A stretch of DNA of 64,000 bases from an uncultured Gammaproteobacteria bacterium (GTDB lineage Bacteria > Patescibacteriota > Patescibacteriia > UBA1558 > UBA10009). Location: assembly GCA_964588165.1 (NCBI GenBank), contig CAZPMS010000002.1:15951-79950 (forward strand), written 5' to 3'. Shown piece after piece: positions 6,428-58,652 of the stretch. How positions within the stretch are numbered: position 1 is the stretch's first letter; every line of letters starts with the position of its first letter. Made by a program: the position numbers and the translations under genes. A model generated the notes under the pieces. The model ran no database searches. It was not told the DNA's origin and worked only from the letters and a program-made list of their open reading frames with translations.

Positions 6428-7435
6428 ATGGAAGTAATTGCTACATTATGGAAAGTGCCTTATCATCACGATCGCAATCGGCGAATGATTGAAGCTGGCG
6501 TAGATTGTTTTAGGATTAAGTGTTCTCATTGGGAAGTTAAAGGCATTTCTGGTGCACTGCAGGCTGCACGAAAGCAAATTGATGAATCAGGCAAACCAAT
6601 AAAACTGATAGCTGATCTGCCTGAAGCAAAATTACGGTTAGGTTTTTTCCCACAAGAACGTCTTATTTTGCCAAAGGGCAAGGGGTATTTATTTAAATTT
6701 GCCGAATCTTCTGATAATCCAGAAAGTTTTATTCCGGTAAAATTTAAAGGTATAACTAAACATCTTAAAGTAGGTGACGAATTTTATATAGGTGATGGCT
6801 GGCTGGCCTTTACTGTAACTGAAATTATTAATGAAGATAGCTTTAAAGCCATAACCAGTAACACCGGCCAATTAGTTTTTAGAACATCTTTAACCATTCC
6901 AAAATTAATGGATGAGTTAAATCATATTACTCCGGTTATAGACGAACTAATTGTTGAATTGCCAAAGTGTCGGCCGGAAATTGTGGCTTTTTCTTTTGTA
7001 AATTCAAAAGCGATGTTGCAGGAATTAAAGAATAAGCTTTTAAAAGTTGCAACTAAAAGCTGGCAGCCAAAAGTTATAGCAAAAATTGAGTCCAAGGAAG
7101 GCGTAAAAAATATTGATGAAATTCTTGAACTGGCTGACGGTATCATGGTAGCCAGGGGTGATTTAGCTTTAAATATACCTTACGCTGAGCTGGGCTTAAT
7201 TCAAAAAAAATTAGTTAAAAAGGCTAAAGAAAAAGATAAATATGTTATTGTGGCAACTCAAATTCTTCAATCACTTTTGGATAATTATTTACCAATGAGA
7301 TCAGATATTCTTGACCTAACTAATATCTGTCTTGATGGGGCATCAGCTATTATGCTATGTACAGAAACTGCCCATAGTGAAAATCCTGAGCGAGCGGTAA
7401 GAGTGGCCAAAGAAATTATTAAAGCTGTTAACTAG
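6428..7435 (+). CDS. pyk: Pyruvate kinase-like protein (barrel/catalytic domain only, 335 aa).
   Basis: IAKIESKEGVKNIDEILELADGIMVARGDLALNIPYAELGLIQKK...VIVATQILQSLL...DILDLTNICLDGASAIMLCTETA matches the PK active-site region. No C-terminal allosteric domain is present. Confidence 0.65.
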   Translation: MEVIATLWKVPYHHDRNRRMIEAGVDCFRIKCSHWEVKGISGALQAARKQIDESGKPIKLIADLPEAKLRLGFFPQERLILPKGKGYLFKFAESSDNPESFIPVKFKGITKHLKVGDEFYIGDGWLAFTVTEIINEDSFKAITSNTGQLVFRTSLTIPKLMDELNHITPVIDELIVELPKCRPEIVAFSFVNSKAMLQELKNKLLKVATKSWQPKVIAKIESKEGVKNIDEILELADGIMVARGDLALNIPYAELGLIQKKLVKKAKEKDKYVIVATQILQSLLDNYLPMRSDILDLTNICLDGASAIMLCTETAHSENPERAVRVAKEIIKAVN

Positions 7436-8676: not shown

Positions 8677-9621
8677 TTAACTTGTCCAGTAATATGCCAT
8701 TATACTAAAATCCACCAGATCAATTTTACCGTCATTATTTAAGTACTCTGCTTCAATTTGGGCAAACTCTTCATTTAAAGGTTTATTGTACCAATAAGCC
8801 ACTATAGAAAAGTCAACTAAGTTAACTTGGCCGTCGTTATTAACATTGCCTCTTATAAACACATTCTCTTCCATTAAAATATTTTCGGTACCCACCTCAA
8901 AACCGATATTATAACTGTAACCGCTGACCATTTGGTTATTTATGGAAGCTCGGGATTTAGTGTTATGGTGCCCATAGTCTAAGATTGATGTATCAAAATT
9001 ACTTAAATAGATGCCATTGGTATCAGAACTGGTGTAGGCAAATTGTTCAATATCTGAATTAACAGCGATAGTAATATCAGCCAAGGGAGTAGTTTGGCCA
9101 AAGATAGCCAGATTATCACCTCTTTTTACTTGGCTTTTATCTATTGTAATGGTAGGAGAAATAAATACTCCGCTAACTGTAGTAATAATGCCTTGGGATA
9201 CAGTTATAGGGTAGGTTAAAATATTAGATCGCCGTTCTTCTTCATCATGGCTATAAAGAGAAAAGATATAGTTGCCAGAAGACAAGCCAGTTACATTTAT
9301 GGAAAAATTGGCGTCTGCTCCGGAAATGGTAGTGGCTATTACTTGGGTATCTTTTAATAGAGTTACTATGCTTTGAGGATAAGCTTTGCCAGTAAATATT
9401 ACACTGGTAGCCGGGGTGTTATAGCCTCCGCCACCGCCTCCTCCGCCACCGCCTCCTCCGCCACCGTTTTCTTCTTCCTCTTCTTCAGGCTCGGCTACTG
9501 TGGCGGAAACATTAACTGTTCCTTGTTCAGCTAAAACATAGTTTTGGGTAAAACCGAAAATAGTTAAAGAGATTACTAATAAAAAAATAGCAATTAATTT
9601 ATTTTTTTTGCTATTCTTCAT
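8677..9621 (-). CDS. Secreted protein with a Glu/Gly-rich linker and two C-terminal dockerin-type repeats.
   Basis: Signal peptide present. EPEEEEEENGGGGGGGGGGGGGG linker. C-terminus NVNNDGQVNLVDFSIVAYWYN...LNNDGKIDLVDFSIMAYYW, which fits the dockerin DxNxDGxIxxxD pattern. Confidence 0.6.
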   Translation of the reverse strand: MKNSKKNKLIAIFLLVISLTIFGFTQNYVLAEQGTVNVSATVAEPEEEEEENGGGGGGGGGGGGGGYNTPATSVIFTGKAYPQSIVTLLKDTQVIATTISGADANFSINVTGLSSGNYIFSLYSHDEEERRSNILTYPITVSQGIITTVSGVFISPTITIDKSQVKRGDNLAIFGQTTPLADITIAVNSDIEQFAYTSSDTNGIYLSNFDTSILDYGHHNTKSRASINNQMVSGYSYNIGFEVGTENILMEENVFIRGNVNNDGQVNLVDFSIVAYWYNKPLNEEFAQIEAEYLNNDGKIDLVDFSIMAYYWTS

Positions 9622-13226: not shown

Positions 13227-14750
13227 TTATGTCACAAATAAATAATATTCAAAATATTTATGGGCCCAATCTCTAAAAGCTTGGCCAGCTTGGATTTGCC
13301 AGAGCTGGGCTGGGTTATAATCATCGGTTAAAATTAAAGAAGTATTTGGGGGAGTAAGCTTAAATATGTCGGTTCTTAAAATTTCTTGGTATAGATTAAA
13401 ACATTCAGGAGTAGGGCAGTTATTTTCTATGGCTTCATCTAAATTATCCGGCAGATTAGAGCCGGCAAAGAAAATAATATTAGTCCAATTTTCCTGACTG
13501 TCTGCCATGGTGATTATTTTTGGAAAGGCTTGCTGTAAAGTTAAATAAAGTGATTGGCTAAATTGTGAATTTAAAAAACCAAGTGTATTAATGGCTAAAA
13601 TCCCTTGCGGCGTTAATTTATTTTTTATTTCTTTAAAGGCCTCCTGGCTTAATAGATGAATGGGAATTTGTTCACTGCCAAAGGCGTCAATTATAATTAA
13701 GTCATATTTTTTTTCTGTTTTATTTAAAAAATAACGGCCATCAGTAAAATATAGGTTAAATTCTTCTGAAGAAAAGCCAAAATAATCAGTGGCTACTTTT
13801 TCTACCTTAGGATCAATTTCTACAATATCACTAATAATTCCTTGCTTTTTAAGATCTCGGGGGATAATTCCAGCTGCTAACCCGATAACTAGGGCATTTT
13901 TGGGCTGTGGCATTAAATAAGCTGCCATCTGCATTTCATTAGTACAGGGTAAAGAACTTTGACCAGTGTTTTTAAAAATTCCGCTTTGATTAATACCATC
14001 AATTAAAAAATAACGTACCGGCCCTTTATCAACTACTTGGATTTCTCCGTAAAAACTGGGGGTTTTAAAAATTAATTTACTTTCTTGGGTGGCTGTTGAT
14101 TTATAGGTAGGTACCAGCATTAATATTGCCATTAAAATTAAACCGCCAGCCAGTTTTAGAAAACCTTTATTTATTAAGAGCCAAACAAAAGCGGTTATCA
14201 GCAAGACTAAAGCAGCAAGGCCGAATATTTTAGTTATGCCAAAATTGGGAATTAGTAAAAAACCGGTTACTATAGCTCCGGTAAGTGATCCTAAGGTAGA
14301 TATGGCATAAAGATTGCCAGCTGTTATGCCTAAGTAATCTAGGGCTTCGGTTTTTATTTTTACTGCCAAGGGGGTTACCATGGCCAGTAATAAAAGAGGC
14401 AAAGCAAATAAAATAAAGCTGGCAGCCAAAGGGCCTTGGATCATGCCAAAACGAGCCGACCAAAGTAAAATCCAGGCGTCTATTTTAGGGATTATTAAAA
14501 CAAATAAGCCGCTTAAGAAAATAATCAGGTAAAGATTTTTTAGATAAGGTTTTTTATCTGCAATGCGGCCACCCCAAAAATAACCTAAAGCCAAACAGGC
14601 CATGGTAATGGTTATTAAAGAACTCCAAACATAAATGGTAGTGCCGTAGAAAGGGGCTAAAATTCTGGTGCCGGCAATTTCTATTACCATGATTACGGCT
14701 CCGGTTATAAAGAGGGTAAGATATAAGAAATATTTATTAAATAGTTTCAT
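13227..14750 (-). CDS. Polyamine aminopropyltransferase (spermidine synthase)-like domain fused to an N-terminal multi-TM domain.
   Basis: Several N-terminal TM helices. C-terminus LVIGLAAGIIPRDLKKQGIISDIVEIDPKVEKVATDYFGF...KKYDLIIIDAF is a PABS/SpeE-like fold. Confidence 0.7.
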   Translation of the reverse strand: MKLFNKYFLYLTLFITGAVIMVIEIAGTRILAPFYGTTIYVWSSLITITMACLALGYFWGGRIADKKPYLKNLYLIIFLSGLFVLIIPKIDAWILLWSARFGMIQGPLAASFILFALPLLLLAMVTPLAVKIKTEALDYLGITAGNLYAISTLGSLTGAIVTGFLLIPNFGITKIFGLAALVLLITAFVWLLINKGFLKLAGGLILMAILMLVPTYKSTATQESKLIFKTPSFYGEIQVVDKGPVRYFLIDGINQSGIFKNTGQSSLPCTNEMQMAAYLMPQPKNALVIGLAAGIIPRDLKKQGIISDIVEIDPKVEKVATDYFGFSSEEFNLYFTDGRYFLNKTEKKYDLIIIDAFGSEQIPIHLLSQEAFKEIKNKLTPQGILAINTLGFLNSQFSQSLYLTLQQAFPKIITMADSQENWTNIIFFAGSNLPDNLDEAIENNCPTPECFNLYQEILRTDIFKLTPPNTSLILTDDYNPAQLWQIQAGQAFRDWAHKYFEYYLFVT

Positions 14751-14868: not shown

Positions 14869-15975
14869 TTGAATATGAAAATATTAGGTATAGAAACATC
14901 ATGTGATGAAAGCGCAGCTGCGCTGCTTCACGTATCACATAACACATATCACTTATCCAGTAATATTGTTTTATCGCAGATAGATATTCATAAAAAATAT
15001 GGTGGCATTGTGCCAGAGGTGGCAGCACGGAAACATGTTGAGTCAATTATTCCTGTTATTGAAGAATCCATTGGTAAGCAAAAACCGGATTTAATTGCTG
15101 TAACCTATGGTCCTGGTTTAATTACTTCGTTACAGGTTGGTGTGCAAACAGCTAAGACCTTGGCTTACATTTGGCAGGTTCCTTTAGTTGGGGTAAATCA
15201 TTTGGAGGCTCATCTTTGGAGCTTTATTTTGAATGAAGAAAGACGAGTGAAGAATGACGTCACACGTCACACGTCACACGTCAAACAATTTCCGGCAGTT
15301 GGTCTAATCGTATCAGGCGGGCATACGGAAATGGTTTTAGTAAAGGGAATTGGCTCGCCTCGATTCCCGTCCCGACTCGGTCGATCCGAGGCAAACGACG
15401 AAGCGGGCAAGTATAAATTGATTGGCAGAACCAGAGACGATGCAGTAGGCGAAGCTTTTGATAAAGTGTCTAAGATGTTAGAAACTGGTTACCCGGGCGG
15501 ACCGATTATTAGCCACTTTGCCAAAAAAGGCGATCCAGCAAGTATAGATTTTCCTAGACCGATGATAGATAGTGACGATTTTGATTTTTCTTTTTCCGGT
15601 TTAAAAACAGCAGTTAAGTATCATCTTAAACAAATGCCTAAAACCGGCAATTTAAGCCAGGCTTTTATAAATAATGTTTGTGCCAGTTTCCAAAAAGCGG
15701 TAATTGATGTTTTAGTTAGTAAAACCATTAAAGCTACAGAAAAATATAAGGCCAAATCAATTATTTTGGGCGGGGGAGTTAGTGCCAATGAAAATTTAAT
15801 CCATAATCTATTATCCATAACCAAAAAAAGGGAGATAGACTTTTATTATCCAGAATTAAAATTTACCGGTGATAATGCGGCTATGGTGGCTTTGGTAGGC
15901 TTCTTAAATAAAAAATCTGCCAAGAAAAATAATTGGCAGAAGTTGGTGGCCGAAGCAAATCTTAAGTTGGTTTAG
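14869..15975 (+). CDS. tsaD: tRNA N6-adenosine threonylcarbamoyltransferase TsaD (Kae1/YgjD family) carrying two in-frame repeat-encoded insertions.
   Basis: MKILGIETSCDESAAAL...VNHLEAH...SGGHTEMV...DDAVGEAFDKV...GYPGGP. Extra segments ERRVKNDVTRHTSHVKQ and SPRFPSRLGRSEANDEAG are encoded by repeats at 15255-15285 and 15352-15412. Confidence 0.9.
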   Translation: MNMKILGIETSCDESAAALLHVSHNTYHLSSNIVLSQIDIHKKYGGIVPEVAARKHVESIIPVIEESIGKQKPDLIAVTYGPGLITSLQVGVQTAKTLAYIWQVPLVGVNHLEAHLWSFILNEERRVKNDVTRHTSHVKQFPAVGLIVSGGHTEMVLVKGIGSPRFPSRLGRSEANDEAGKYKLIGRTRDDAVGEAFDKVSKMLETGYPGGPIISHFAKKGDPASIDFPRPMIDSDDFDFSFSGLKTAVKYHLKQMPKTGNLSQAFINNVCASFQKAVIDVLVSKTIKATEKYKAKSIILGGGVSANENLIHNLLSITKKREIDFYYPELKFTGDNAAMVALVGFLNKKSAKKNNWQKLVAEANLKLV

Positions 15976-23199: not shown

Positions 23200-26100
23200 A
23201 TGAAAGAATTATCTAAATCATATCAGCCAGATAAACACGAAAGCTCAATTTACCAAAAATGGGAAGAGTCCGGGTTTTTTAATCCCGATAATTTGCCAGG
23301 CAAGCGCAAGAAAGTTTTTTCTGTTAGCCTGCCGCCGCCCAATGCTACCGGCATTTTGCATATTGGCCATGCTTCGATGCTGGCTTACCAAGATATTATG
23401 GTCCGGTACCATAGGCTAAAAGGTGATAAAACTTTGTGGTTGCCCGGAACAGACCACGCAGCCATTGCCACTCAAACGGTGGTAGAAAAAAAATTAATCA
23501 AGGAAGAAAAAAAGCGCAAAGAAGATATTGGCCGAGAAGAGTTCAGAAAAAGAATAGATAAATATGTAGAAGAATCCCGTGGCACCATCCGTAAACAGCT
23601 CCGGGCCATGGGCTCATCTTTAGATTGGTCTAGAGAAAGATTTACCTTAGATAAAGATTTATCATTAGCAGTTAGAACAGCTTTTGCGAAAATGTATAAT
23701 GATGGACTAATTTATAGAGGTTATCGGATTGTTAATTGGTGCCCGCACTGTAAATCCACTTTAGCTGATGACGAAGTTGAGTATAAGGAACAAAAGGCCC
23801 CGTTTTATTATTTTAAATACGGTCCGGTGGTTATTGGTACAGCCAGACCAGAAACTAAATTTTCTGATAAAGTAATTATTGTTCATCCTAAAGATAAGCG
23901 TTTTAAAGATATCGCAGGTAAGGAATTTGAAGTGGAATGGATTAACGGCAAGATTAAAGCAAAAGTTATTACCGATGAAGCAGCTGATATGGAAATGGGA
24001 ACCGGGGCCATGACCATTACTCCGGCCCATAGTTTTGTAGATTTTGATTTGGCTCAAAAATATAAATTAAAGGTAGAAGAAATAATTGATAAAGATGGAA
24101 ATTTAACAGAAGTTGCTGGTGAATTTGCTGGTCAACCAGCTGCTAAAGCCAGAGAGAAAATTGTTAATAAGCTGGCCAAGAAAGGCTTAGTTGATAAAAT
24201 TGATGAAGATTACGTCCATAATTTATCTCTTTGTTACCGGTGTAAAACGCCTATTGAACCGTTGCCTTCTAAGCAGTGGTTTGTTGATGTAAATAAAAAG
24301 ATTCCAAAAAAAGGCAAGTCATTAAAGCAACTGGCCTCCGATGTAGTCAAAAATGGTGATATAAAAATAATTCCTGATAAATTCAACAAAACTTATTTCC
24401 AGTGGATGGATAATTTAAGAGATTGGTGTATTAGCCGCCAAATTTGGTATGGACATCAAATTCCGGTTTGGTATAGGGACGCAAAAGCGCAAAAGCGCAA
24501 AAGCGCAAAAAAGGAGCAAGATATTATTGTACCTAAAGAAATAACTGAAATCAATCTAATGCGCCACGGTTTAACTGATTGGAACAAAGACCAAAAAATT
24601 CAGGGCAGAACTAACGTGCCTCTAGATGAATCCAGCGTAGATAAAATTAATAAAATAATGCCTCAGTTAAGGTCAGAAAATTTTGATATAATTATTAGCT
24701 CACCCTTAATGAGAGCCAAACAAACGGCTGAAATTGTAAATAAACAATTAAATCTGCCTTTAATAGAAGATGAATTATTGGTTGAAAGAAATTATGGTAA
24801 ATTTGAAGGGAAAAAAGTAAATGATATAAAAAATGACCATCCTGATTATGCCAAGGATAAAATTAATTATGATATCCCAGGAGATGATGAAGAAACCTAC
24901 CAGGAGATTGCTCAAAGGCTGAAGAAGTTCATTAAACAAGTAAGTAAAGAATATCCTAACAAGAAAATTTTAGTTATATGCCACAATGCAGTTATCAGGA
25001 CTTTCAAGATGATAATAAAGGATTCCTCACCTAAGGAACTTTCTGGCTATAAACCTAGTTTTGACAAGTTGGTTAAATATCAAATTTTAGATGGTAACTA
25101 TAACCTAAAAGGTGTTGAGCAAGATCCTGACACTTTAGATACCTGGTTTTCATCTTCACTTTGGACATTTAGTACTCTTGGCTGGCCAGATAAAACTGAC
25201 GATCTTAAGGCTTATCATCCAACCAGTGTTATGGAAACCGGTTATGACATTTTATTTTTTTGGGTGGCCAGAATGATACTTATGTCCGAATACCTTTTAG
25301 GCCAGAAACCTTTTGAAACAGTTTACCTCCACGGCTTGGTTAAAGATAAAGAAGGCAGGAAGATGTCAAAGTCGCTTGGCAATGGCATTGATCCAATAGC
25401 CATGATTGATAAGTTTGGCACTGATGCTTTGCGGTTGGCTATGATTGTAGGAGCCAGTGCCGGTAATGACATCAGGCTTTACGAAGAAAAGATAGCCGGC
25501 TATAGGAACTTTGTTAATAAACTTTGGAACATCAGCCGCTACATATTATCTACTGTTGGACAAGTTAAACCAATTGAAAAATTGCCAGAAGCAAAAACTT
25601 TAGCTGATAAATGGATTCTTTTAGAATTTAATCAAATCGTAGAATCAACCACTGGTAATATTGAACAGTTTAAGTTCTCTCAAGCCGGTGAAGAGCTTTA
25701 TGAATTTACTTGGTCTAAACTGGCCGATTGGTATTTGGAAATCGCCAAGGTTGAAGAGGGAAAAGATGAGATCCTTTTATACATTTTAGAAAAGCTACTT
25801 ATTTTATGGCATCCCTTTTGTCCGTTTATTACAGAAGTTATTTGGGAGATATTTAAGACAGATAAGCTATTGATGATTAAAGAATGGCCGGAAATAAAGA
25901 AACAAGATATAAAAAACAAGATACAAGATGAATTTGAAAAAGTTCAAGAGATTGTTTCAGCTATCAGGAACACCAGGGCAGAACATCTGGCTAATCCCAA
26001 AAAAGTTTATGGTTGTTCTATAAAAACTTCAAAGAAAAAAGTGATTGAAGAGAATAAAAATATAATTGAAGCTTTGGCCAAAATTAAAATTATTCCTAAG

Positions 26101-26334
26101 GCCACTGGCGTTGCTATTAATCTTGCTTGGGCTGACATGATTTTAGATATTAAGGAAAATAGGGAAGTGGCCAAAAATAAAGCTAAAGAAACTGTAAATT
26201 TAGAACGTTATATCCAAATCCAAGAAGCAAAATTAAGGAATAAAGATTTTACTAAAAAGGCTCCACCTAAAGTGGTGGAGGAAGAAAAGGAGAAATTATC
26301 GCAAGCAAAAGAAAAGTTAGCCAAATTAAAATAG
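23200..26334 (+). CDS. valS: Valyl-tRNA synthetase carrying an inserted histidine-phosphatase (PGAM-like) domain.
   Basis: HIGH motif (PPPNATGILHIGHA). WCISRQIWYGHQIPVWY. KMSKS. C-terminal coiled coil. About 213 extra aa lie between PVWY and DPDTLDTWFSS. They contain LMRHGLTDWN (RHG), GKFEG and ICHNAVIR, the catalytic motifs of the histidine phosphatase superfamily. Confidence 0.9.
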   Translation: MKELSKSYQPDKHESSIYQKWEESGFFNPDNLPGKRKKVFSVSLPPPNATGILHIGHASMLAYQDIMVRYHRLKGDKTLWLPGTDHAAIATQTVVEKKLIKEEKKRKEDIGREEFRKRIDKYVEESRGTIRKQLRAMGSSLDWSRERFTLDKDLSLAVRTAFAKMYNDGLIYRGYRIVNWCPHCKSTLADDEVEYKEQKAPFYYFKYGPVVIGTARPETKFSDKVIIVHPKDKRFKDIAGKEFEVEWINGKIKAKVITDEAADMEMGTGAMTITPAHSFVDFDLAQKYKLKVEEIIDKDGNLTEVAGEFAGQPAAKAREKIVNKLAKKGLVDKIDEDYVHNLSLCYRCKTPIEPLPSKQWFVDVNKKIPKKGKSLKQLASDVVKNGDIKIIPDKFNKTYFQWMDNLRDWCISRQIWYGHQIPVWYRDAKAQKRKSAKKEQDIIVPKEITEINLMRHGLTDWNKDQKIQGRTNVPLDESSVDKINKIMPQLRSENFDIIISSPLMRAKQTAEIVNKQLNLPLIEDELLVERNYGKFEGKKVNDIKNDHPDYAKDKINYDIPGDDEETYQEIAQRLKKFIKQVSKEYPNKKILVICHNAVIRTFKMIIKDSSPKELSGYKPSFDKLVKYQILDGNYNLKGVEQDPDTLDTWFSSSLWTFSTLGWPDKTDDLKAYHPTSVMETGYDILFFWVARMILMSEYLLGQKPFETVYLHGLVKDKEGRKMSKSLGNGIDPIAMIDKFGTDALRLAMIVGASAGNDIRLYEEKIAGYRNFVNKLWNISRYILSTVGQVKPIEKLPEAKTLADKWILLEFNQIVESTTGNIEQFKFSQAGEELYEFTWSKLADWYLEIAKVEEGKDEILLYILEKLLILWHPFCPFITEVIWEIFKTDKLLMIKEWPEIKKQDIKNKIQDEFEKVQEIVSAIRNTRAEHLANPKKVYGCSIKTSKKKVIEENKNIIEALAKIKIIPKATGVAINLAWADMILDIKENREVAKNKAKETVNLERYIQIQEAKLRNKDFTKKAPPKVVEEEKEKLSQAKEKLAKLK

Positions 26335-37727: not shown

Positions 37728-37749
37728 ATTTATATTTTGATTTATCGGT

Positions 37750-37782
37750 AGCCCGCCGAATCGGCGGGCTACTTTTGTCTAC
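37750..37782 (+). terminator. Intrinsic terminator after gyrA
   Basis: gtagcccgccgaatcggcgggctac followed by ttttgtc. Confidence 0.7.
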
Positions 37783-44631: not shown

Positions 44632-45669
44632 ATGAAGCTTTCAGATTTTGATTACAAATTACCCAAACAGCTTATTGCTCATAAACCGGCCAGCCCGCGT
44701 GATAATTCCAGGCTGATGGTTTTAGATCGCCAATCAAAAAAGATTGAACATAAGCATTTTTTTGATATTGTAGATTATTTAAATAAAGGCGATGTTTTGG
44801 TTTTGAATAATACTAAGGTATTTCCGGCTCGTCTTATCGGCCAGCGTTATAAAACCGGCGGTAAAGTGGAAGTTTTCCTTTTGAAAAAAGTTGGATCGAG
44901 CTCAGCTCGATGGGAAGTGTTAATTGGGAACAGAAGAAAAAAAATTGGTCAAATAATTGAATTTGGCAAAGGTTTGGAATGTGAAATTGTAAAGCAAATT
45001 GATGAATCAGTCTGGCAGGTTAAGTTTAATAAATCGGGCAGTCAACTAGAAAAAGTTATTGATCAAATCGGTGAAGTTCCTACTCCACCTTATATTAAAA
45101 TTAAAGATAAAAAGACTAAAAGATTGAAAGATTTATATCAAACAGTTTATGCAGAGCATCGTGGGTCAGTAGCGGCGCCTACGGCTGGGTTTCATTTTAC
45201 AAAACCTTTAATCAACAAATTAAAAAAGAAGGGCGTTCAATTTGAATATGTTACGCTCCATGTTGGTTTTGGAACTTTTGAAGAAGTTAGAGTGAATAAT
45301 ATTAAAAAGCACAAAATGCATTCAGAATTCGCAAAAATAGACGCAAAGACCACAAAAAATTTAAATAATGCAAAAAAAGAAAGTAGGCGGGTAATATCAG
45401 TCGGCACAACCTCAACCAGAGTTCTTGAAGCTTTTAGTAGTAAAGGAAAAATTAAAGCTCAAAGCAAGTGGGTAGATATTTTTATTTACCCAGGCTATAA
45501 GTTTAAATTTATTGATGGGTTGATAACAAATTTTCATTTGCCCAAATCAAGTTTAATAATGTTAGTAAGTGCTTTAGCTGGTCGTCAACTTATTCTCAAG
45601 GCTTACAAGACTGCTGTCAGTAAAAAGTACCGTTTTTATTCTTTTGGCGACAGTATGTTTATTTTTTAA
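44632..45669 (+). CDS. queA: S-adenosylmethionine:tRNA ribosyltransferase-isomerase QueA. It carries an in-frame family F palindrome at 44895-44913.
   Basis: MKLSDFDYKLPKQLIAHKP...RLMVL. VLNNTKVFPARL. C-terminal TNFHLPKSSL. Confidence 0.85.
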   Translation: MKLSDFDYKLPKQLIAHKPASPRDNSRLMVLDRQSKKIEHKHFFDIVDYLNKGDVLVLNNTKVFPARLIGQRYKTGGKVEVFLLKKVGSSSARWEVLIGNRRKKIGQIIEFGKGLECEIVKQIDESVWQVKFNKSGSQLEKVIDQIGEVPTPPYIKIKDKKTKRLKDLYQTVYAEHRGSVAAPTAGFHFTKPLINKLKKKGVQFEYVTLHVGFGTFEEVRVNNIKKHKMHSEFAKIDAKTTKNLNNAKKESRRVISVGTTSTRVLEAFSSKGKIKAQSKWVDIFIYPGYKFKFIDGLITNFHLPKSSLIMLVSALAGRQLILKAYKTAVSKKYRFYSFGDSMFIF

Positions 45670-45764: not shown

Positions 45765-45795
45765 GGACCCCGCTGCTCGCGAGCGGCAGGGGTGG
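45765..45795. repeat. Palindrome family A copy 1 (ccccgctgctcgcgagcggcagggg), intergenic.
   Basis: The core gctcgcgagc is perfectly palindromic. Other copies are at 46275-46304 and 47723-47747. Confidence 0.7.
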
Positions 45796-46274: not shown

Positions 46275-46304
46275 CAACCCAGCTGCTCGCGAGCGGCTGG
46301 GTTG
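46275..46304. repeat. Palindrome family A copy 2 (caacccagctgctcgcgagcggctgggttg).
   Basis: Near-perfect 30-bp palindrome in intergenic DNA. Confidence 0.7.
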
Positions 46305-47114: not shown

Positions 47115-48215
47115 TTATTTGTTAAATAAAAAGTAAACAGTATCACCGTCTTTTATTGGGTAGTTTTTACCTTCAGTTTTAATTAGGCCCTGTTCTTTAG
47201 CTTGAATTTCTCCGCCAGCTTCAATTAAACTTTGCCAATTTACAATTTCGGCTCTAATAAAGCCCTGTTCAAAATCGGTATGGATAACTCCGGCTGCCTG
47301 CGGTGCCTGCGTGCCACTTTCAACAGTCCAGGCATGGGCTTCTTTTGGGCCGGCAGTGAAGAAGGTTATGAGATTTAAAAGATTGTAAGATTGTAAGATT
47401 AATTTATCTAAACCACTTTGGCTTATGCCGAGTGTTTCTAAATATTGTTTAGCCTCAACGGCTGGCATAGAGGCCAGTTCAGATTCTAACTTGGCAGATA
47501 TGGTTAAGTAAGGTTTTTTATAATGATCCTTGGATTTAGTTAGTTCATTTTCAGAAACATTATAAACATAAAGGATTGGTTTATAAGTTAGAAGATTTAA
47601 TTCTTTAATAAATTTAATATCTTCATCAGCTACTTCTAAATTAATAGCAAATTTTTCTTCTTCCAGAATCTTTTTTAAGTTTTTTAAAATTTCAATGTTT
47701 TTTAAAAGAATTTTGTCTTTTGACCCAGCTGCTCGCGAGCGGCTGGGAGAACCTTTAGCTTGCTTGGTTAGTTTTTCTAAAAGACCATTAACCGTTTCTA
47801 AGTCGGCCAGGATTAATTCTAAATTAATAGTTTTTACATCATCTTCCGGATCAATTTTGCCGTTTACATGAATTATATCGTCATTAGCAAAATCTCTAAC
47901 CACCTCAGCAATCGCATCAACCTCTCTTATATGAGAAAGGAATTTATTGCCTAAGCCTTCACCATCGGCTGCGCCCTTTACTAGGCCTGCAATATCTACA
48001 AATTCAATAGCGGTTGGTACTACTTTGGGAGAATTATAAAGCTGGGCAAGCTTGTCTAACCTATTATCAGGAACGGCCACCACACCTACATTAGGCTCAA
48101 TAGTGCAAAATGGATAATTAGAAGCATCCACCTGATTTTTAGTTAGGGCAGTAAATAAAGTTGATTTGCCTACATTAGGCAAGCCCACAATGCCGATTGA
48201 AAAACTCATAAACAA
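47115..48215 (-). CDS. ychF: Ribosome-binding ATPase YchF (Obg-like). It carries an in-frame family A palindrome insertion (SPSRSRAAGS).
   Basis: GIVGLPNVGKSTLF. TGS domain. C-terminal ...LNLITFFTAGPKEAHAWT. Confidence 0.85.
   Translation of the reverse strand: MFMSFSIGIVGLPNVGKSTLFTALTKNQVDASNYPFCTIEPNVGVVAVPDNRLDKLAQLYNSPKVVPTAIEFVDIAGLVKGAADGEGLGNKFLSHIREVDAIAEVVRDFANDDIIHVNGKIDPEDDVKTINLELILADLETVNGLLEKLTKQAKGSPSRSRAAGSKDKILLKNIEILKNLKKILEEEKFAINLEVADEDIKFIKELNLLTYKPILYVYNVSENELTKSKDHYKKPYLTISAKLESELASMPAVEAKQYLETLGISQSGLDKLILQSYNLLNLITFFTAGPKEAHAWTVESGTQAPQAAGVIHTDFEQGFIRAEIVNWQSLIEAGGEIQAKEQGLIKTEGKNYPIKDGDTVYFLFNK
47723..47747. repeat. Palindrome family A copy 3, inside the ychF coding sequence and in frame.
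   Basis: acccagctgctcgcgagcggctggg. Confidence 0.7.
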
Positions 48216-52438: not shown

Positions 52439-52585
52439 ATGGATATGACTAAGTCAAAACTGTCAAAATCAATAAGAAAATATATTAGAGGCGAGAAAGC
52501 TAAAATTCGCAAAACTTTTTCTAATCCCGAAGAAGCTGAAAGAAAAGTAAAAGAATTAATTCAAAAATTCATAACCAATGACTAA
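52439..52585 (+). CDS. Small basic hypothetical protein (48 aa), overlapping the uvrD start by 8 nt.
   Basis: MDMTKSKLSKSIRKYIRGEKAKIRKTF... An agggatt RBS-like sequence is present. It is below the ORF-track cut-off. Confidence 0.3.
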   Translation: MDMTKSKLSKSIRKYIRGEKAKIRKTFSNPEEAERKVKELIQKFITND

Positions 52586-54662
52586 AACTTTTGTTTTAAA
52601 AGACCAGGAGATTCCTAAAGATTTAAAGGTAGATTACCAGTCAGAATTAAATAAGGAACAATACCAAGTGGTAACCGGGGCCGAGGGGCCTTGTTTAGTC
52701 TTAGCCGGTGCTGGTAGTGGTAAAACCAGAACTATTGTTTATAGAGTAGCTTATCTTATAGAAAGAGGAGTAAGCCCTGAAAATATTTTATTAGTAACTT
52801 TTACCAATAAAGCAGCCAAAGAAATGTTAAAAAGGGTAGAAATGCTTTTAGGTAAATTCCCCGAAAAGTTATGGGGTGGCACTTTTCATCATATTGGTAA
52901 TCGAATTTTAAGAAAATACGCCAAGCTTTTGGGTTATCAATCCAATTTTACTATCTTAGACGAAGAAGATGCTAAAAGTTTAATAAAAGTTTGTATTAAA
53001 GAAGAGGGCGTGGATATAAAGGCACGTCGTTTTCCTTCAGCTGCTGTTTTAAAAGATGTAATAAGCTATTCAAAAAATTCTCAAACCAAACTTAAAGAAG
53101 TAATAGAAGCCAGGCATCCAAAATGGCTGGAATTGGAGCCTCAAATTAAAAATATAAGCCATCGGTATCAGCTAAAAAAGCAGGATAACAATAGCATGGA
53201 TTTTGATGATCTACTGGTTAACTGGTTAAAATTATTAAAACAAGAACCAAAAGTTAAAGAAAGGCTGGCCTCTCAATTCCAATATGTTTTAGTGGATGAA
53301 TACCAAGATACCAATTATATTCAAGCTTCCATTATTAAAGAACTATCTTCTGTCCATAAAAATATTTTGGTAGTGGGTGATGATGCCCAAAGTATCTACT
53401 CGTTTAGGGCGGCAGATATTGGTAATATTTTAAATTTCCAAAAAAACTTTCCCGGCGCCAAATTATTTAAATTAGAAACCAATTATCGTTCCACTCCAGA
53501 AATTTTAAATGTAGCTAACGAAGTTATTAAACAAAATGTGGCCCAGTACCCTAAAGTACTTCAGCCTAAATTAAAGAATTTTGTAAAACCCAGCTTGGTT
53601 CCATCTACTTCCGCCGGTCAAGAAGCTGATTTTATTAGCCAACAGATTTTGCAGTTAAGAGAAGAGGGCGTACCTTTAAAAAAGATGGCTGTTTTATTTA
53701 GAGCGGCCCACCATTCACAAGAACTGGAGTTCCAGCTAACTAAAAGAGATATCCCTTATGATTATCGGGGCGGGGTTAGGTTTTTTGAACGAGCTCATAT
53801 AAAAGATATTTTGGCTTTTTTAAAAGTGATGTCTAATCCTAAAGATGAAGTTTCTTGGATGAGAATTCTAACTTTGCAGGTAGGTATTGGTGACGTCATG
53901 GCCAGTAGAATTTATGCCAAGGTAAAAGATTTAGATTGTCCGATTGCTTGTGTTGAAGCAGATTTAACTGATGTTTTAACATCCAAGGCTCAAATTGGCT
54001 GGCAAGCGGTGGTAAATATTTTTAAAAAAGATTTAAAGATAGAAAGATTGAAAGATTTAAATGATCCGGCTGAATTTATCAGGTCATTGGCAAAATCGGA
54101 TTATCGTAATTATTTAGAGGCTAGTCATCCAAATTGGCAGGAACGTTTAGAGGATTTGGAACAGTTGGCTAAGTTTTCGGAAAATTATGAAGACACCAAT
54201 TCATTTTTAGCAGAGATAACTTTACAAGAGGCCTTTGCTGTTAGTCGAGCTGAGCTCGATGAGCGAATCCAAACAGATGTCAGCGACGATGAAAGATTAA
54301 TTTTATCAACCATTCATCAAGCTAAAGGTTTGGAGTGGGAAGTGGTTTTTGTTATCAATTTGGTAGATATGGCTTTTCCAAATCGCAGAGCCCAAACAGA
54401 AAAAGGAGGCTTAGAAGAAGAGAGAAGATTATTTTATGTGGCCGTTACCAGGGCCAAAAGGCAGTTGTTTATGTCTTATCCAATAACGGGCAGTTATTCA
54501 TCAATGTTTTTGAATACGCCCTCCCAGTTTTTGCAAGAAATTCCCGAAGAATTAATGGAAGAGATGAAATTATTAAGCAGTAGCAATTGGATAAAGAATG
54601 ATGATTTAGATGATCGAGCTAAGCTCGATGATGGCGATGTTCAATATCTGCCGGAAGTTTAA
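52578..54662 (+). CDS. uvrD: ATP-dependent DNA helicase of the UvrD/PcrA/Rep family. It carries two in-frame family F palindromes.
   Basis: GPCLVLAGAGSGKT. DEYQDTN. Motifs IV-VI. VTRAKRQL. Confidence 0.85.
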   Translation: MTKTFVLKDQEIPKDLKVDYQSELNKEQYQVVTGAEGPCLVLAGAGSGKTRTIVYRVAYLIERGVSPENILLVTFTNKAAKEMLKRVEMLLGKFPEKLWGGTFHHIGNRILRKYAKLLGYQSNFTILDEEDAKSLIKVCIKEEGVDIKARRFPSAAVLKDVISYSKNSQTKLKEVIEARHPKWLELEPQIKNISHRYQLKKQDNNSMDFDDLLVNWLKLLKQEPKVKERLASQFQYVLVDEYQDTNYIQASIIKELSSVHKNILVVGDDAQSIYSFRAADIGNILNFQKNFPGAKLFKLETNYRSTPEILNVANEVIKQNVAQYPKVLQPKLKNFVKPSLVPSTSAGQEADFISQQILQLREEGVPLKKMAVLFRAAHHSQELEFQLTKRDIPYDYRGGVRFFERAHIKDILAFLKVMSNPKDEVSWMRILTLQVGIGDVMASRIYAKVKDLDCPIACVEADLTDVLTSKAQIGWQAVVNIFKKDLKIERLKDLNDPAEFIRSLAKSDYRNYLEASHPNWQERLEDLEQLAKFSENYEDTNSFLAEITLQEAFAVSRAELDERIQTDVSDDERLILSTIHQAKGLEWEVVFVINLVDMAFPNRRAQTEKGGLEEERRLFYVAVTRAKRQLFMSYPITGSYSSMFLNTPSQFLQEIPEELMEEMKLLSSSNWIKNDDLDDRAKLDDGDVQYLPEV

Positions 54663-57365: not shown

Positions 57366-58652
57366 TTAGTTATATTTCAAGCCAGGATATAATGGATACT
57401 TATCAGTCAGATCTTTGACTGATTTTTTGATATCATCTTTTATGGAATTGTCATTAACATTTTTTAGGGTTTTGGCAATCAAGCTTCCTATCAATTTCAT
57501 GTCGTCTTCCTTAAAACCTCTGGAAGTTAAAGCAGGCGTGCCCAATCTAATACCGGAAGGATCAAATGGGCTCCTGGTATCAAACGGAACTGTATTTTTA
57601 TTGGCTGTTATTCCAACTGCATCTAAAGCCTTTTCACCGTCTTTACCACCTACGCCTAAATTGGTTAGGTTAATTATCATTAAGTGGTTATCAGTACCGC
57701 CGGTAACTAAATTCAAGCCTTCGTTCATTAAGCTGGCAGCCAAAGCTTTAGCATTTAATACAATTTGTTTGGCATAATCTTTAAATTCCGGTTTGTTGGC
57801 CTCCTCAAGAGCTACAGCAATAGCGGCGGTGGTATGGTTATGCGGACCGCCTTGCAAACCAGGTATAATGGCTCTATCTATTAAGGTAGGAATATTTTCT
57901 TTGGTTCGTTTTACCTTTTTAGTTGGGTTAGAAACTTTACCATGGGAAAGAATCATAGCGCCCCTGGGTCCGCGCAGGGTTTTATGAGTGGTGGTAGTTA
58001 TTACATCAGCAATTTTAGTTGGCGTTGGATGTTGCCCGCCAATTATCAAACCTGCAATATGGGCAATGTCGGCCATAAAAAAGGCACCTACTTCATCAGC
58101 AATAGCCTTAAACTTTTGCCAATCAATAATTCTGGGGTAAGCAGTATAGCCGGCAATAATCATTTTTGGTTTATGTTCTTTAGCTAGAGTTCTTATTTCA
58201 TCGAAATCCAAATAACCGTTTTTATCAGCTGTGTAATTTATGGCATTATACAAAGTTCCGGAAAAGTTTACTTTTAGGCCATGGGTCATATGTCCGCCAA
58301 AAGCCAGGTTAGCGCCCATTACAGTATCGCCAACATCAAGCAGGGCATAATAAACTGCCAGGTTGGCAGGGGAGCCGGAATAAGGCTGCACATTGGCATG
58401 GTCTACGCCGAAAAGTTTTTTAGCCCTATCAATAGCCAGCTGTTCAATATCATCAACAAATTCACAACCTCCATAGTAACGTCTGCCCGGGTAGCCTTCG
58501 GAATATTTATTAGTACCTACACTGCCTAAAGCCTCAAGAACTGCAGAGGAAACAAAATTTTCTGAAGGTATCATTTCCAGACCGTTTTGGCTGCGTTCCA
58601 ATTCTTTTTGCAATAATTCAGCTATTTTTTTGTCAGTTGTAGAAAGTTTCAT
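57366..58652 (-). CDS. glyA: Serine hydroxymethyltransferase
   Basis: PLP-Lys motif TTTTHKTLRGPRGAMIL. The rest is typical SHMT sequence. Confidence 0.9.
   Translation of the reverse strand: MKLSTTDKKIAELLQKELERSQNGLEMIPSENFVSSAVLEALGSVGTNKYSEGYPGRRYYGGCEFVDDIEQLAIDRAKKLFGVDHANVQPYSGSPANLAVYYALLDVGDTVMGANLAFGGHMTHGLKVNFSGTLYNAINYTADKNGYLDFDEIRTLAKEHKPKMIIAGYTAYPRIIDWQKFKAIADEVGAFFMADIAHIAGLIIGGQHPTPTKIADVITTTTHKTLRGPRGAMILSHGKVSNPTKKVKRTKENIPTLIDRAIIPGLQGGPHNHTTAAIAVALEEANKPEFKDYAKQIVLNAKALAASLMNEGLNLVTGGTDNHLMIINLTNLGVGGKDGEKALDAVGITANKNTVPFDTRSPFDPSGIRLGTPALTSRGFKEDDMKLIGSLIAKTLKNVNDNSIKDDIKKSVKDLTDKYPLYPGLKYN

Follow-up and report, generated by a model that had tools for sequence, protein, structure and literature searches.

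Two conserved genes in a 64,000-nt stretch of contig CAZPMS010000002.1 (assembly GCA_964588165.1), here called the window, carry copies of a short palindrome inside their reading frames. A first-pass annotation had reported near-identical palindromes, named family F, twice in a UvrD/PcrA-family helicase gene and once in queA. We searched the window with the 19-nt pattern GATCGAGCTNAGCTCGATG, allowing up to three mismatches, and found exactly these three matches; 100 dinucleotide-preserving shuffles of the window yielded none. Two of the annotated positions were off by 1 nt and that of the second helicase copy (54622-54640) was 10 nt too high. The peptides quoted for the sites were correct (...VSRAELDER... 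and ...DDRAKLDDG... in the helicase, ...GSSSARW... in QueA), and our translations of both genes agreed with the description of in-frame copies in conserved genes. The host genes and the copies lie at the following positions of the window:

44632..45669, plus strand: queA, S-adenosylmethionine:tRNA ribosyltransferase-isomerase, 345 aa, Pfam PF02547
44894-44912: family F copy in queA, GATCGAGCTCAGCTCGATG, no mismatches to the 19-nt pattern
44896..44910: palindrome of the queA copy, TCGAGCTCAGCTCGA, peptide S-S-S-A-R, directly followed by the conserved Trp codon TGG
52578..54662, plus strand: UvrD/PcrA-family helicase, 694 aa, Pfam UvrD-helicase, AAA_19 and UvrD_C
54243-54261: first family F copy in the helicase gene, AGTCGAGCTGAGCTCGATG, two mismatches to the 19-nt pattern
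54612-54630: second family F copy in the helicase gene, GATCGAGCTAAGCTCGATG, no mismatches to the 19-nt pattern

The helicase matched PcrA (1pjr) at E = 3e-119, and QueA matched its B. subtilis counterpart (1yy3) at E = 1.6e-102. The best protein matches place the window in Patescibacteria, close to 'Komeilibacteria'. Contigs from JGI 3300009375, JGI 3300009374, Logan SRR9166048 and ENA SAMN10231903 code for an identical helicase protein; since the same protein thus occurs in at least four independent samples or assemblies, an assembly artefact can be excluded.

The core shared by the three copies is a perfect 15-nt palindrome, TCGAGCT-N-AGCTCGA, located at 44896-44910 in queA and at 54245-54259 and 54614-54628 in the helicase gene. 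Perfect self-complementarity spans 17 nt in queA (44895-44911), 15 nt at the first helicase site (54245-54259) and 17 nt at the second (54613-54629). The outer G...G of the 19-nt motif is unpaired, so that the annotated palindrome length of 19 bp has to be shortened accordingly. The single unpaired centre base is C in queA and G and A in the two helicase copies, respectively. The palindromes are richer in G+C than the window (47-60% versus about 36%) and fold into a stem of 6-7 bp with a triloop; the computed energies are -5.4 to -6.2 kcal/mol for the DNA form and -8.7 to -10.9 kcal/mol for the RNA form. Both helicase copies are read as CGA GCT NAG CTC GAT, and the queA copy in a different frame, as TCG AGC TCA GCT CGA.

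Helicase and queA copies compared with orthologs

Relative to orthologs, each helicase site holds an added segment of 18 nt:

54243..54260: helicase insert 1, 18 nt, AGTCGAGCTGAGCTCGAT, peptide SRAELD, residues 556-561, palindrome flanked by TAG and TGA
54612..54629: helicase insert 2, 18 nt, GATCGAGCTAAGCTCGAT, peptide DRAKLD, residues 679-684, palindrome flanked by TGA and TGA

In protein alignments, all 39 of the best orthologs (57-77% identity) had a gap of exactly six residues at each site, with FAVSR-AELDERIQTD aligned to FAVER-A------APD at site 1 and NDDLDDRAKLDDGDVQYLPEV aligned to NEDL------DDGEVQYLPEV at site 2. Comparison at the codon level with the DNA of three orthologs (L127, L128 and L126) resolved these gaps into two clean 18-nt additions: GTT-AGTCGAGCTGAGCTCGAT-GAG CGA stands against GTA GAA AGA of ortholog P0002 at site 1, and GAT-GATCGAGCTAAGCTCGAT-GAT GGC against ...TTA GAC-GAT GGC... 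of P0012 at site 2. Taking out the 18 nt restored the ortholog reading at both sites, in agreement with the insertional origin that the annotation had proposed for the helicase.

Each 18-nt insert further resolves into the 15-nt palindrome and a 3-nt direct repeat of the target. At site 2 the structure is GA(TGA)TCGAGCTAAGCTCGA(TGA)TGG, a perfect repeat with TGA at 54611-54613 and 54629-54631, and at site 1 it is GT(TAG)TCGAGCTGAGCTCGA(TGA)GCG, an imperfect one. Before insertion, the empty targets would have read GT-TGA-G and GA-TGA-T. An insert of 15+3 = 18 bp leaves the frame unchanged and permits read-through; the in-frame state of the copies therefore follows from the length of the insert and is no separate coincidence.

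In an AlphaFold2 model of the helicase built with 40 sequences (mean predicted local distance difference test score, pLDDT, 82.9), both inserts fell within segments predicted below pLDDT 50, namely residues 551-570 for insert 1 and 669-685 for insert 2; the only other non-terminal stretch of low confidence was a three-residue dip at 398-400. On alignment to PcrA of Geobacillus, site 1 maps to the linker immediately preceding the LMTLHAAKGLE motif and site 2 to the C-terminal tail, past the aligned core. The linker of PcrA itself at site 1 is longer and contains SDLDELDG, a likeness that is a coincidence between acidic linkers. The two helicase copies, 369 nt apart, evidently arrived by insertion of an 18-bp unit into flexible linkers, as judged from these alignments. 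When metagenome_contigs was searched for an empty allele with a two-site pattern (0-18 nt per helicase site), no match was found, the source species evidently not being in that collection. A single-site pattern gave two matches there, which were unrelated chance hits in FG-GAP-like repeats.

For queA, where an insertion had likewise been annotated, the comparison was less clear-cut. Most QueA orthologs lack the SSSAR peptide, as an insertion would have it; however, the palindrome sits in a hypervariable loop that ranges from 4 to more than 50 residues among 50 orthologs, many of them with unrelated inserts, and the window's loop exceeds both the clade baseline and that of B. subtilis QueA by only two residues. 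Moreover, the annotation had named sharing of the exact peptides by orthologs as evidence against insertion, and in queA such sharing occurs in part: two orthologs carry the same DNA palindrome. In L125 (protein P0126) it occupies the same queA codons (GTCGAGCTCAGCTCAAT). In L126 (P0133) the same site reads ATCAAGC, an 18-nt nested palindrome of type TCCAGCTCAGCTGGA, then TCAGCTCGAT, the sister palindrome nested in the family F copy again adding 18 nt (L126:10262-10300). Flanking synonymous sites in both genes differ from those of the window; what is shared is the DNA palindrome itself and not an ancestral peptide. In a third ortholog, P0135, a loop of equal length and about 50% identity to the palindrome possibly represents a decayed copy. 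The three palindrome-bearing queA genes are not sister taxa in a weak neighbour-joining tree; the queA copy is either old and kept at the DNA level, or has been gained repeatedly at a hot spot.

Other QueA orthologs (P0146, P0158 and P0164) have long unrelated inserts in the same loop, aligned to window positions 44890-44915. Several of these (VIPAKAGI..., ...FRRND, IPAFAGMT) look like read-through of what we take to be another widespread G+C-rich palindromic repeat.

The palindrome in other genomes and the sites of its copies

We scanned one genome per species for the 17-mer ATCGAGCTNAGCTCGAT and obtained at least 120 loci. Among the matches listed, 31 are labelled Patescibacteria (the Candidate Phyla Radiation, CPR), from the Shapiro-, Davies-, Collier-, Uhr-, Yanofsky-, Komeili- and Saccharibacteria, and 22 are low-G+C metagenome-assembled genomes (MAGs) labelled "uncultured Gammaproteobacteria". 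At least two of the latter, L072 (81% protein identity to the Komeilibacteria locus L069) and L122 (89% to L017), are Patescibacteria by content, so that their record labels appear to be wrong. L072 and L122 also have tRNA-palindrome junctions in common with L069 and L017, and L041 and about 19 others are labelled in the same way. Coding coincidence in high-G+C genomes, with C or G at the centre, accounts for most of the remaining listed matches, such as one conserved Collinsella gene (LGFPIELSSIGF) and the RAQ(L/A)DR motif of MnmG in L118, and some others lie at the centre of longer palindromic repeats. In IMG/VR, the 17-mer had only six matches, near chance, and a viral origin was rejected.

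In two high-G+C Clostridia MAGs, the 17-mer forms the centre of a repeated 41-nt palindrome at gene ends, AAATTCTGATTT-ATCGAGCTNAGCTCGAT-AAATCAGAATTT, the loci being:

L048:6345-6385
L116:180-220
L099:4510-4550
L105:3800-3840

A similar common context recurs in Bacillus norwichensis and Siminovitchia terrae (L010, L054). Given its presence in these Clostridia and Bacillus/Siminovitchia contexts, the core is not strictly confined to CPR genomes.

About one quarter of the CPR copies examined among the matches listed lie in real genes. A parallel to the helicase comes from a relative with an 809-kb contig (L100), where a cytidylyltransferase-TruB fusion (P0241) holds two family F copies 296 nt apart and in different frames. 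One of them, encoding DRAQLD, is a clean six-residue insertion missing from 43 orthologs and is flanked by TGA on both sides; the other, encoding IELSSI, lies in a variable loop between TAA and TAA, and removing 18 nt keeps the frame. Orthologs of this fusion (P0256, P0261, P0266 and P0277) have independent short inserts a few residues from the family F insert, for example SRLRSQASAGQ, DCSAGTKAWR and ARFAESRR (aligned to L100:2170-2230), a pattern that suggests that many different short elements strike the same linkers in this clade. Further genic family F copies occur in the following genes:

L124: aspartyl-tRNA synthetase gene (AspRS)
L078: endonuclease III gene
L087: tail of a DEAD-box helicase gene

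Which frames can be read through depends on the centre base. Frame 1 of the 17-mer, I-E-L-S-S, cannot contain a stop; frame 2, S-S-(TNA)-A-R, is open with centre C or T, and frame 3, R-A-(NAG)-L-D, with every centre but T. Given its free central base, the palindrome is open in 8 of the 12 frame-by-centre combinations. The centres seen in coding copies obey these rules, and the copies encode RA(E/K/Q)LD, SSSAR or IELSS by frame. As the copies are read in three frames, selection at the peptide level was ruled out.

Family F belongs to a superfamily of 15-17 bp, N4-AGCTNAGCT-N4', in which a 9-nt centre is constant and the outer arms change in complementary pairs (arms seen: ATCG, ACCA, GCCG, GCGA, GTCA, ATCA, ACCG and ATCC). 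Sister palindromes often stand in tandem with family F, 3-5 nt apart, and clusters of related hairpins occur in L005, L058 and L062. In 118.5 kb of clade DNA picked by gene and not by motif, we counted 8 AGCTNAGCT cores versus 2.0 expected, and 6 AGCTNAGCT palindromes of at least 15 nt versus 0.06 expected, about one per 20 kb. The three sites of the window are copies of one 15-bp palindrome, and its superfamily is common in Patescibacteria.

For statistics on insertion sites we used the 66 CPR copies of the 15-mer among the matches listed. Target duplications, tRNA-CCA junctions and hairpin tips were all over-represented. Flush direct repeats of 3-6 nt flanked 12 of the 66 copies versus 2.2 expected from mismatched flank pairs (5/1.6 observed/expected at 3 nt, 3/0.5 at 4 nt, 3/0.08 at 5 nt and 1/0.03 at 6 nt). 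In 14 of the 66, the first base coincides with the last A of a tRNA gene's CCA or follows directly on it, and the tRNAs concerned are of eight types (Leu, Gly, Cys, Ala, Ser, Phe, Arg and Tyr). Nearly all tRNA genes of the listed CPR loci (L005-L122, 51 genes) encode the 3' CCA and are followed directly by a short hairpin; in L072, differing post-tRNA hairpins precede one common trailer, T(G/A)AATCAAA.... Seven copies, versus 0.8 expected, sit at the tip of a longer palindrome that extends 5 bp or more beyond them on each side. L101 shows a duplicated TGATA that makes up the entire loop of a hairpin already present there, and L084 a duplicated TGGA corresponding to the TCCA end of a tRNA. T-runs accompany 11 of the 66 copies on one side, compared with 12% at random positions, and the window copies are gene-internal and without a T-run, arguing against a general terminator role.

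The window also contains copies of family A, whose form (A)CCCAGCTGCTCGCGAGCGGCTGGG(T) includes one T·G mismatch, at three places, the first with other outer arms (CCCC/GGGG):

45772-45787: family A copy
46275-46304: family A copy
47724-47747: family A copy, within YchF (47115..48215, minus strand)

The copy in YchF is a 24-nt palindrome that adds nine residues (SPSRSRAAG region) compared with the L125 and L126 orthologs, which bears out the annotated statement that family F behaves like family A. With family F at 44.9, 54.2 and 54.6 kb and family A at 45.8, 46.3 and 47.7 kb, all six copies lie within 10 kb. Outside 44.9-54.6 kb, neither family was found in the remaining 54 kb of the window or the 9.3 kb past its right end (L139:1-9300).

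A proposed mobile hairpin and its rivals

Insertion of members of a repeated family is a very probable origin of the copies. The contrary possibility, that nothing was inserted and that chance, a convergent useful peptide or an assembly or library artefact produced the three sites, can draw on the 17-mer matches in other phyla that are plain coding coincidences (MnmG in L118, the Collinsella gene) and on the SDLDELDG of PcrA where site 1 aligns. It is barely credible when set against the absence of any copies expected by chance, the differing frames and unrelated peptides, the 39 of 39 helicase orthologs without the residues, the same protein in at least four independent samples, and the presence of the element in other genomes and genes; shuffles, frame diversity and independent samples exclude chance, peptide selection and artefact, respectively.

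Our best explanation as a whole is that family F is a very small mobile hairpin element that persists in coding loops thanks to its length and free centre base, to which we assign a probability of roughly 0.45. Its spread would be by copy-and-paste at the DNA level and mostly short-range, given two copies in one gene in two genomes and the six family F and family A copies within 10 kb. Each helicase insert includes a 3-bp duplication of a T(G/A)A target. The constant 9-nt centre with complementary variation of the arms points to a macromolecule that recognises a hairpin or dyad, and for this reason we favour, tentatively and with somewhat less confidence than the element itself, mobilisation in trans by a putative DNA enzyme that is both structure- and sequence-specific. 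Having AGCTNAGCT at its centre, the hairpin or dyad would be recognised by such an enzyme and placed into staggered breaks, preferably at the tips of existing hairpins and directly 3' of the tRNA CCA. Selection would then retain only copies in tolerant surface loops, where the six added residues would be passengers. In its most far-reaching form, the proposal would make the 15-bp AGCTNAGCT hairpin the smallest mobile DNA yet described, with a dedicated putative enzyme, homing to CCA and hairpin tips, duplications of 3-6 bp, routine six-residue remodelling of loops in essential proteins and a role as general driver of CPR inserts; we regard this full combination as doubtful.

Several observations weigh against a mobile element. 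Most listed copies lack a duplication (52 of 66), the queA copy has no target repeat, and one of the two helicase copies has the imperfect repeat TAG/TGA. The duplications vary among 3, 4, 5 and 6 nt, even inside one MAG, a spread that one transposase would not usually produce and that microhomology-type processes match better. The 17-mer scan required an outer A...T pair and thereby biased the flanks, a constraint that the null of the repeat test shares. By Pfam, no transposase, REP-associated tyrosine transposase (RAYT), HUH protein or other candidate enzyme was found among the 40 open reading frames of the window and the precomputed domains of its neighbours (9 kb beyond), and we know of no transposase substrate as small as 15 bp. 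Recent mobility, finally, would have to be read from comparisons at 57-77% protein identity only.

The main rival to a mobile element is copying of the palindrome from a nearby copy by replication strand-switching or microhomology-primed templated repair, with the repeats as junction microhomologies and no dedicated enzyme. It fits better than an enzyme the variable repeat length (3-6 nt) and the tight clustering (369 nt in uvrD, 296 nt in TruB, six family F and A copies in 10 kb); it is also favoured by the lack of a transposase nearby and by the bias of the copies towards structures that stall forks, namely hairpin tips and the base of the tRNA acceptor stem. Yet it leaves unexplained why AGCTNAGCT stays constant while the paired arms change across families and phylum-level CPR lineages, and the two helicase copies differ at their centre base (G versus A), so that on balance we consider it unlikely. 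We hold it still less likely that the palindrome is a selected cis-element, that is, a DNA site for a dimeric protein (parS-, matS- or Noc-like, or of restriction-modification type with a GCTNAGC centre) or an RNA hairpin for tRNA 3'-trailer processing or mRNA control, a function that would possibly be compatible with insertion and not exclusive of it. A free centre base with a perfect dyad is typical of dimer sites, all window copies fall in one 10-kb zone, the queA palindrome has been kept at the DNA level between species whose proteins are about 70% identical and whose synonymous sites next to it have changed, many copies lie precisely after the CCA of tRNA genes, and the RNA hairpin is moderately stable (-9 to -11 kcal/mol). 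On the other hand, the arms vary among sister families, limiting any fixed recognition to 9 nt; target duplications and clean 18-nt insertions explain arrival rather than retention; and T-runs at 11 of the 66 listed copies versus 12% at random show that the copies are not generally terminators. The counts of AGCT, GAGCTC and TCGA in the window are unremarkable, AGCT and GAGCTC not being avoided, which ruled out a restriction-modification signature, and the sequence is unlike canonical parS. Rfam reported only a tRNA-Glu in the window, leaving no known RNA family as a candidate.

The layout of target duplication, 7-nt end, N, inverted 7-nt end and target duplication is also what terminal inverted repeats would leave, so that the copies could be excision footprints of a larger cut-and-paste transposon with TCGAGCT...AGCTCGA termini, each made of two 7-nt ends, a junction base and a target duplication. 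This is very improbable: 514 kb of CPR loci held no full-length candidate with matching 3-nt flanks, a single pair being about the chance expectation, and on that ground the candidate was rejected; the copies are uniformly 7+1+7, while footprints normally vary in length; and in sister families it is the inner part that is constant and the outer that varies, opposite to what transposon termini do.

Known palindromic repeats and other features of the window

The functionally closest known systems are the Rickettsia palindromic elements (RPEs), with the G+C-rich palindromic clusters of mitochondria also close. RPEs lie in frame in unrelated conserved housekeeping genes, are read through and are tolerated at permissive positions (PMC10969869). 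Family F resembles them in being, by alignment, inserted in frame in conserved genes, as six residues in UvrD (twice) and in TruB, and predicted to be translated with its host. It differs in size and range, since RPEs measure about 100-150 bp (PMC10969869), encode a peptide module that is conserved and are found only in Rickettsia, whereas the family F insert is 18 nt long and found in Patescibacteria. Family F also yields three different hexapeptides by frame, and about one fifth of its listed copies are joined to tRNA 3' ends, two further differences from RPEs.

Mitochondrial hairpin elements include the yeast GC42/M-class clusters (PMC4478555), sponge repetitive hairpin elements (PMC2800124), Allomyces double-hairpin elements and Neurospora PstI palindromes. 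They show short target nucleotides or duplications (AG for yeast GC42) and nesting or merging, their mobilising mechanism is unknown, and they are sometimes genic (PMC4478555; PMC2800124). Like them, family F is G+C-rich, hairpin-forming and dispersed in an A+T-rich genome; unlike them, it measures 15-17 bp with a constant AGCTNAGCT and lies on a bacterial chromosome, the organellar clusters being mostly 30-50 bp or more and without sequence relationship to family F. The 18-nt double-PstI core was reportedly seen by Yin, Heckman and RajBhandary in 1981 to flank Neurospora mitochondrial tRNA genes.

Repetitive extragenic palindromic (REP) sequences are described in PMC3733652 as imperfect extragenic palindromes that measure 20-40 bp, bear the tetranucleotide GTAG or CGTC at one end and lack target duplication. 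In common with REPs and their mosaic arrangements (BIMEs), family F consists of repeated short hairpins, occurs in clusters of related hairpins, and is probably recognised by structure and a few fixed bases. Its palindromes are, in contrast, perfect and 15-17 nt long, with no GTAG/CGTC tag in their flanks (left GGA, TAG, TGA; right TGG, TGA, TGA); all three window copies lie inside conserved genes, and duplications of 3-6 nt accompany the family. REPs are mobilised by RAYT (Y1/HUH) transposases, whose gene they usually flank; no such Pfam match was present in the window open reading frames and 9 kb beyond. With MITEs, the miniature inverted-repeat transposable elements, including terminator-like repeats such as SPRITE, family F shares inverted-repeat ends (trivially, as its two 7-nt arms) and target-site duplication, and some copies are hairpins with a T-run at gene ends, although T-runs are not enriched. 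MITEs span tens to hundreds of bp and contain internal sequence of a parent insertion sequence (IS), whereas family F has 15 bp and no internal sequence; no parent IS was found for it in the 514 kb of CPR loci, its duplication length varies and most listed copies lack a repeat. For parS, matS, Noc and SlmA sites, which are fixed palindromes bound by a dimeric protein and grouped in one chromosomal zone, the comparison showed clustering within 10 kb, arms that vary between sister families and a sequence unlike canonical parS. At 15-17 bp versus 30-150 bp for RPEs and mitochondrial clusters, and with neither the tag of REPs nor a parent IS, family F is not a member of any of these classes of repeat, and we found no description of such elements in CPR genomes in the full-text literature searched.

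CPR proteins are rich in short lineage-specific insertions of unexplained origin, and here several of them can be traced in the DNA to a 15-bp palindrome with a target duplication of 3 bp. If family F is truly mobile, the minimum size of a transposable unit would fall well below that of REPs and MITEs, a putative hairpin-specific enzyme would be expected in organisms with minimal genomes, and selfish palindromes in genes would extend from Rickettsia and mitochondria to another reduced A+T-rich group. The exact tRNA-CCA junction suggests a testable tie to tRNA 3'-end biology. In practice, such inserts can mislead marker-gene alignments and phylogenies, and are usable as clade or strain markers.

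The genes of the window are otherwise ordinary CPR housekeeping genes, with some further repeats. An identical string of 15-16 nt, AAGCTGGCAGCCAAA(G/A) with a GCTGNCAGC dyad, occurs at 7057-7072, 14416-14431 and 57730-57745, in genes for pyruvate kinase, a spermidine-synthase-like protein and serine hydroxymethyltransferase (SHMT), on differing strands and in differing frames, and may represent a third inserted family. A G+C-rich repeat of about 50 nt, TTAATGATTGCCGCGCCCCGCTTG(T/C)GAAGCGAAGCGGAGTCGGGCCGGGGAT, is present at about 599-650 and 2446-2497 with a one-base difference over the stretch read, and the pair brackets the RNase III and NusB-NUDIX genes. The isoleucyl-tRNA synthetase (IleRS)-like protein encoded at 23200-26334 (1044 aa) has a His_Phos_1 domain (aa 452-616) between the two halves of its catalytic domain. 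Intragenic tandem repeats of at least three copies each were seen in tsaD (period 7, ACGTCAC, 15257-15283), in the IleRS gene (period 8, GCAAAAGC, 24480-24508) and in an open reading frame of unknown function (period 15, G/C-rich, 9425-9466). Finally, 20 nt past the gyrA stop, a perfect 25-nt hairpin at 37748-37772, GTAGCCCGCCGAATCGGCGGGCTAC, starts with GTAG like GTAG-tagged REPs and occurs as a single copy in the window.

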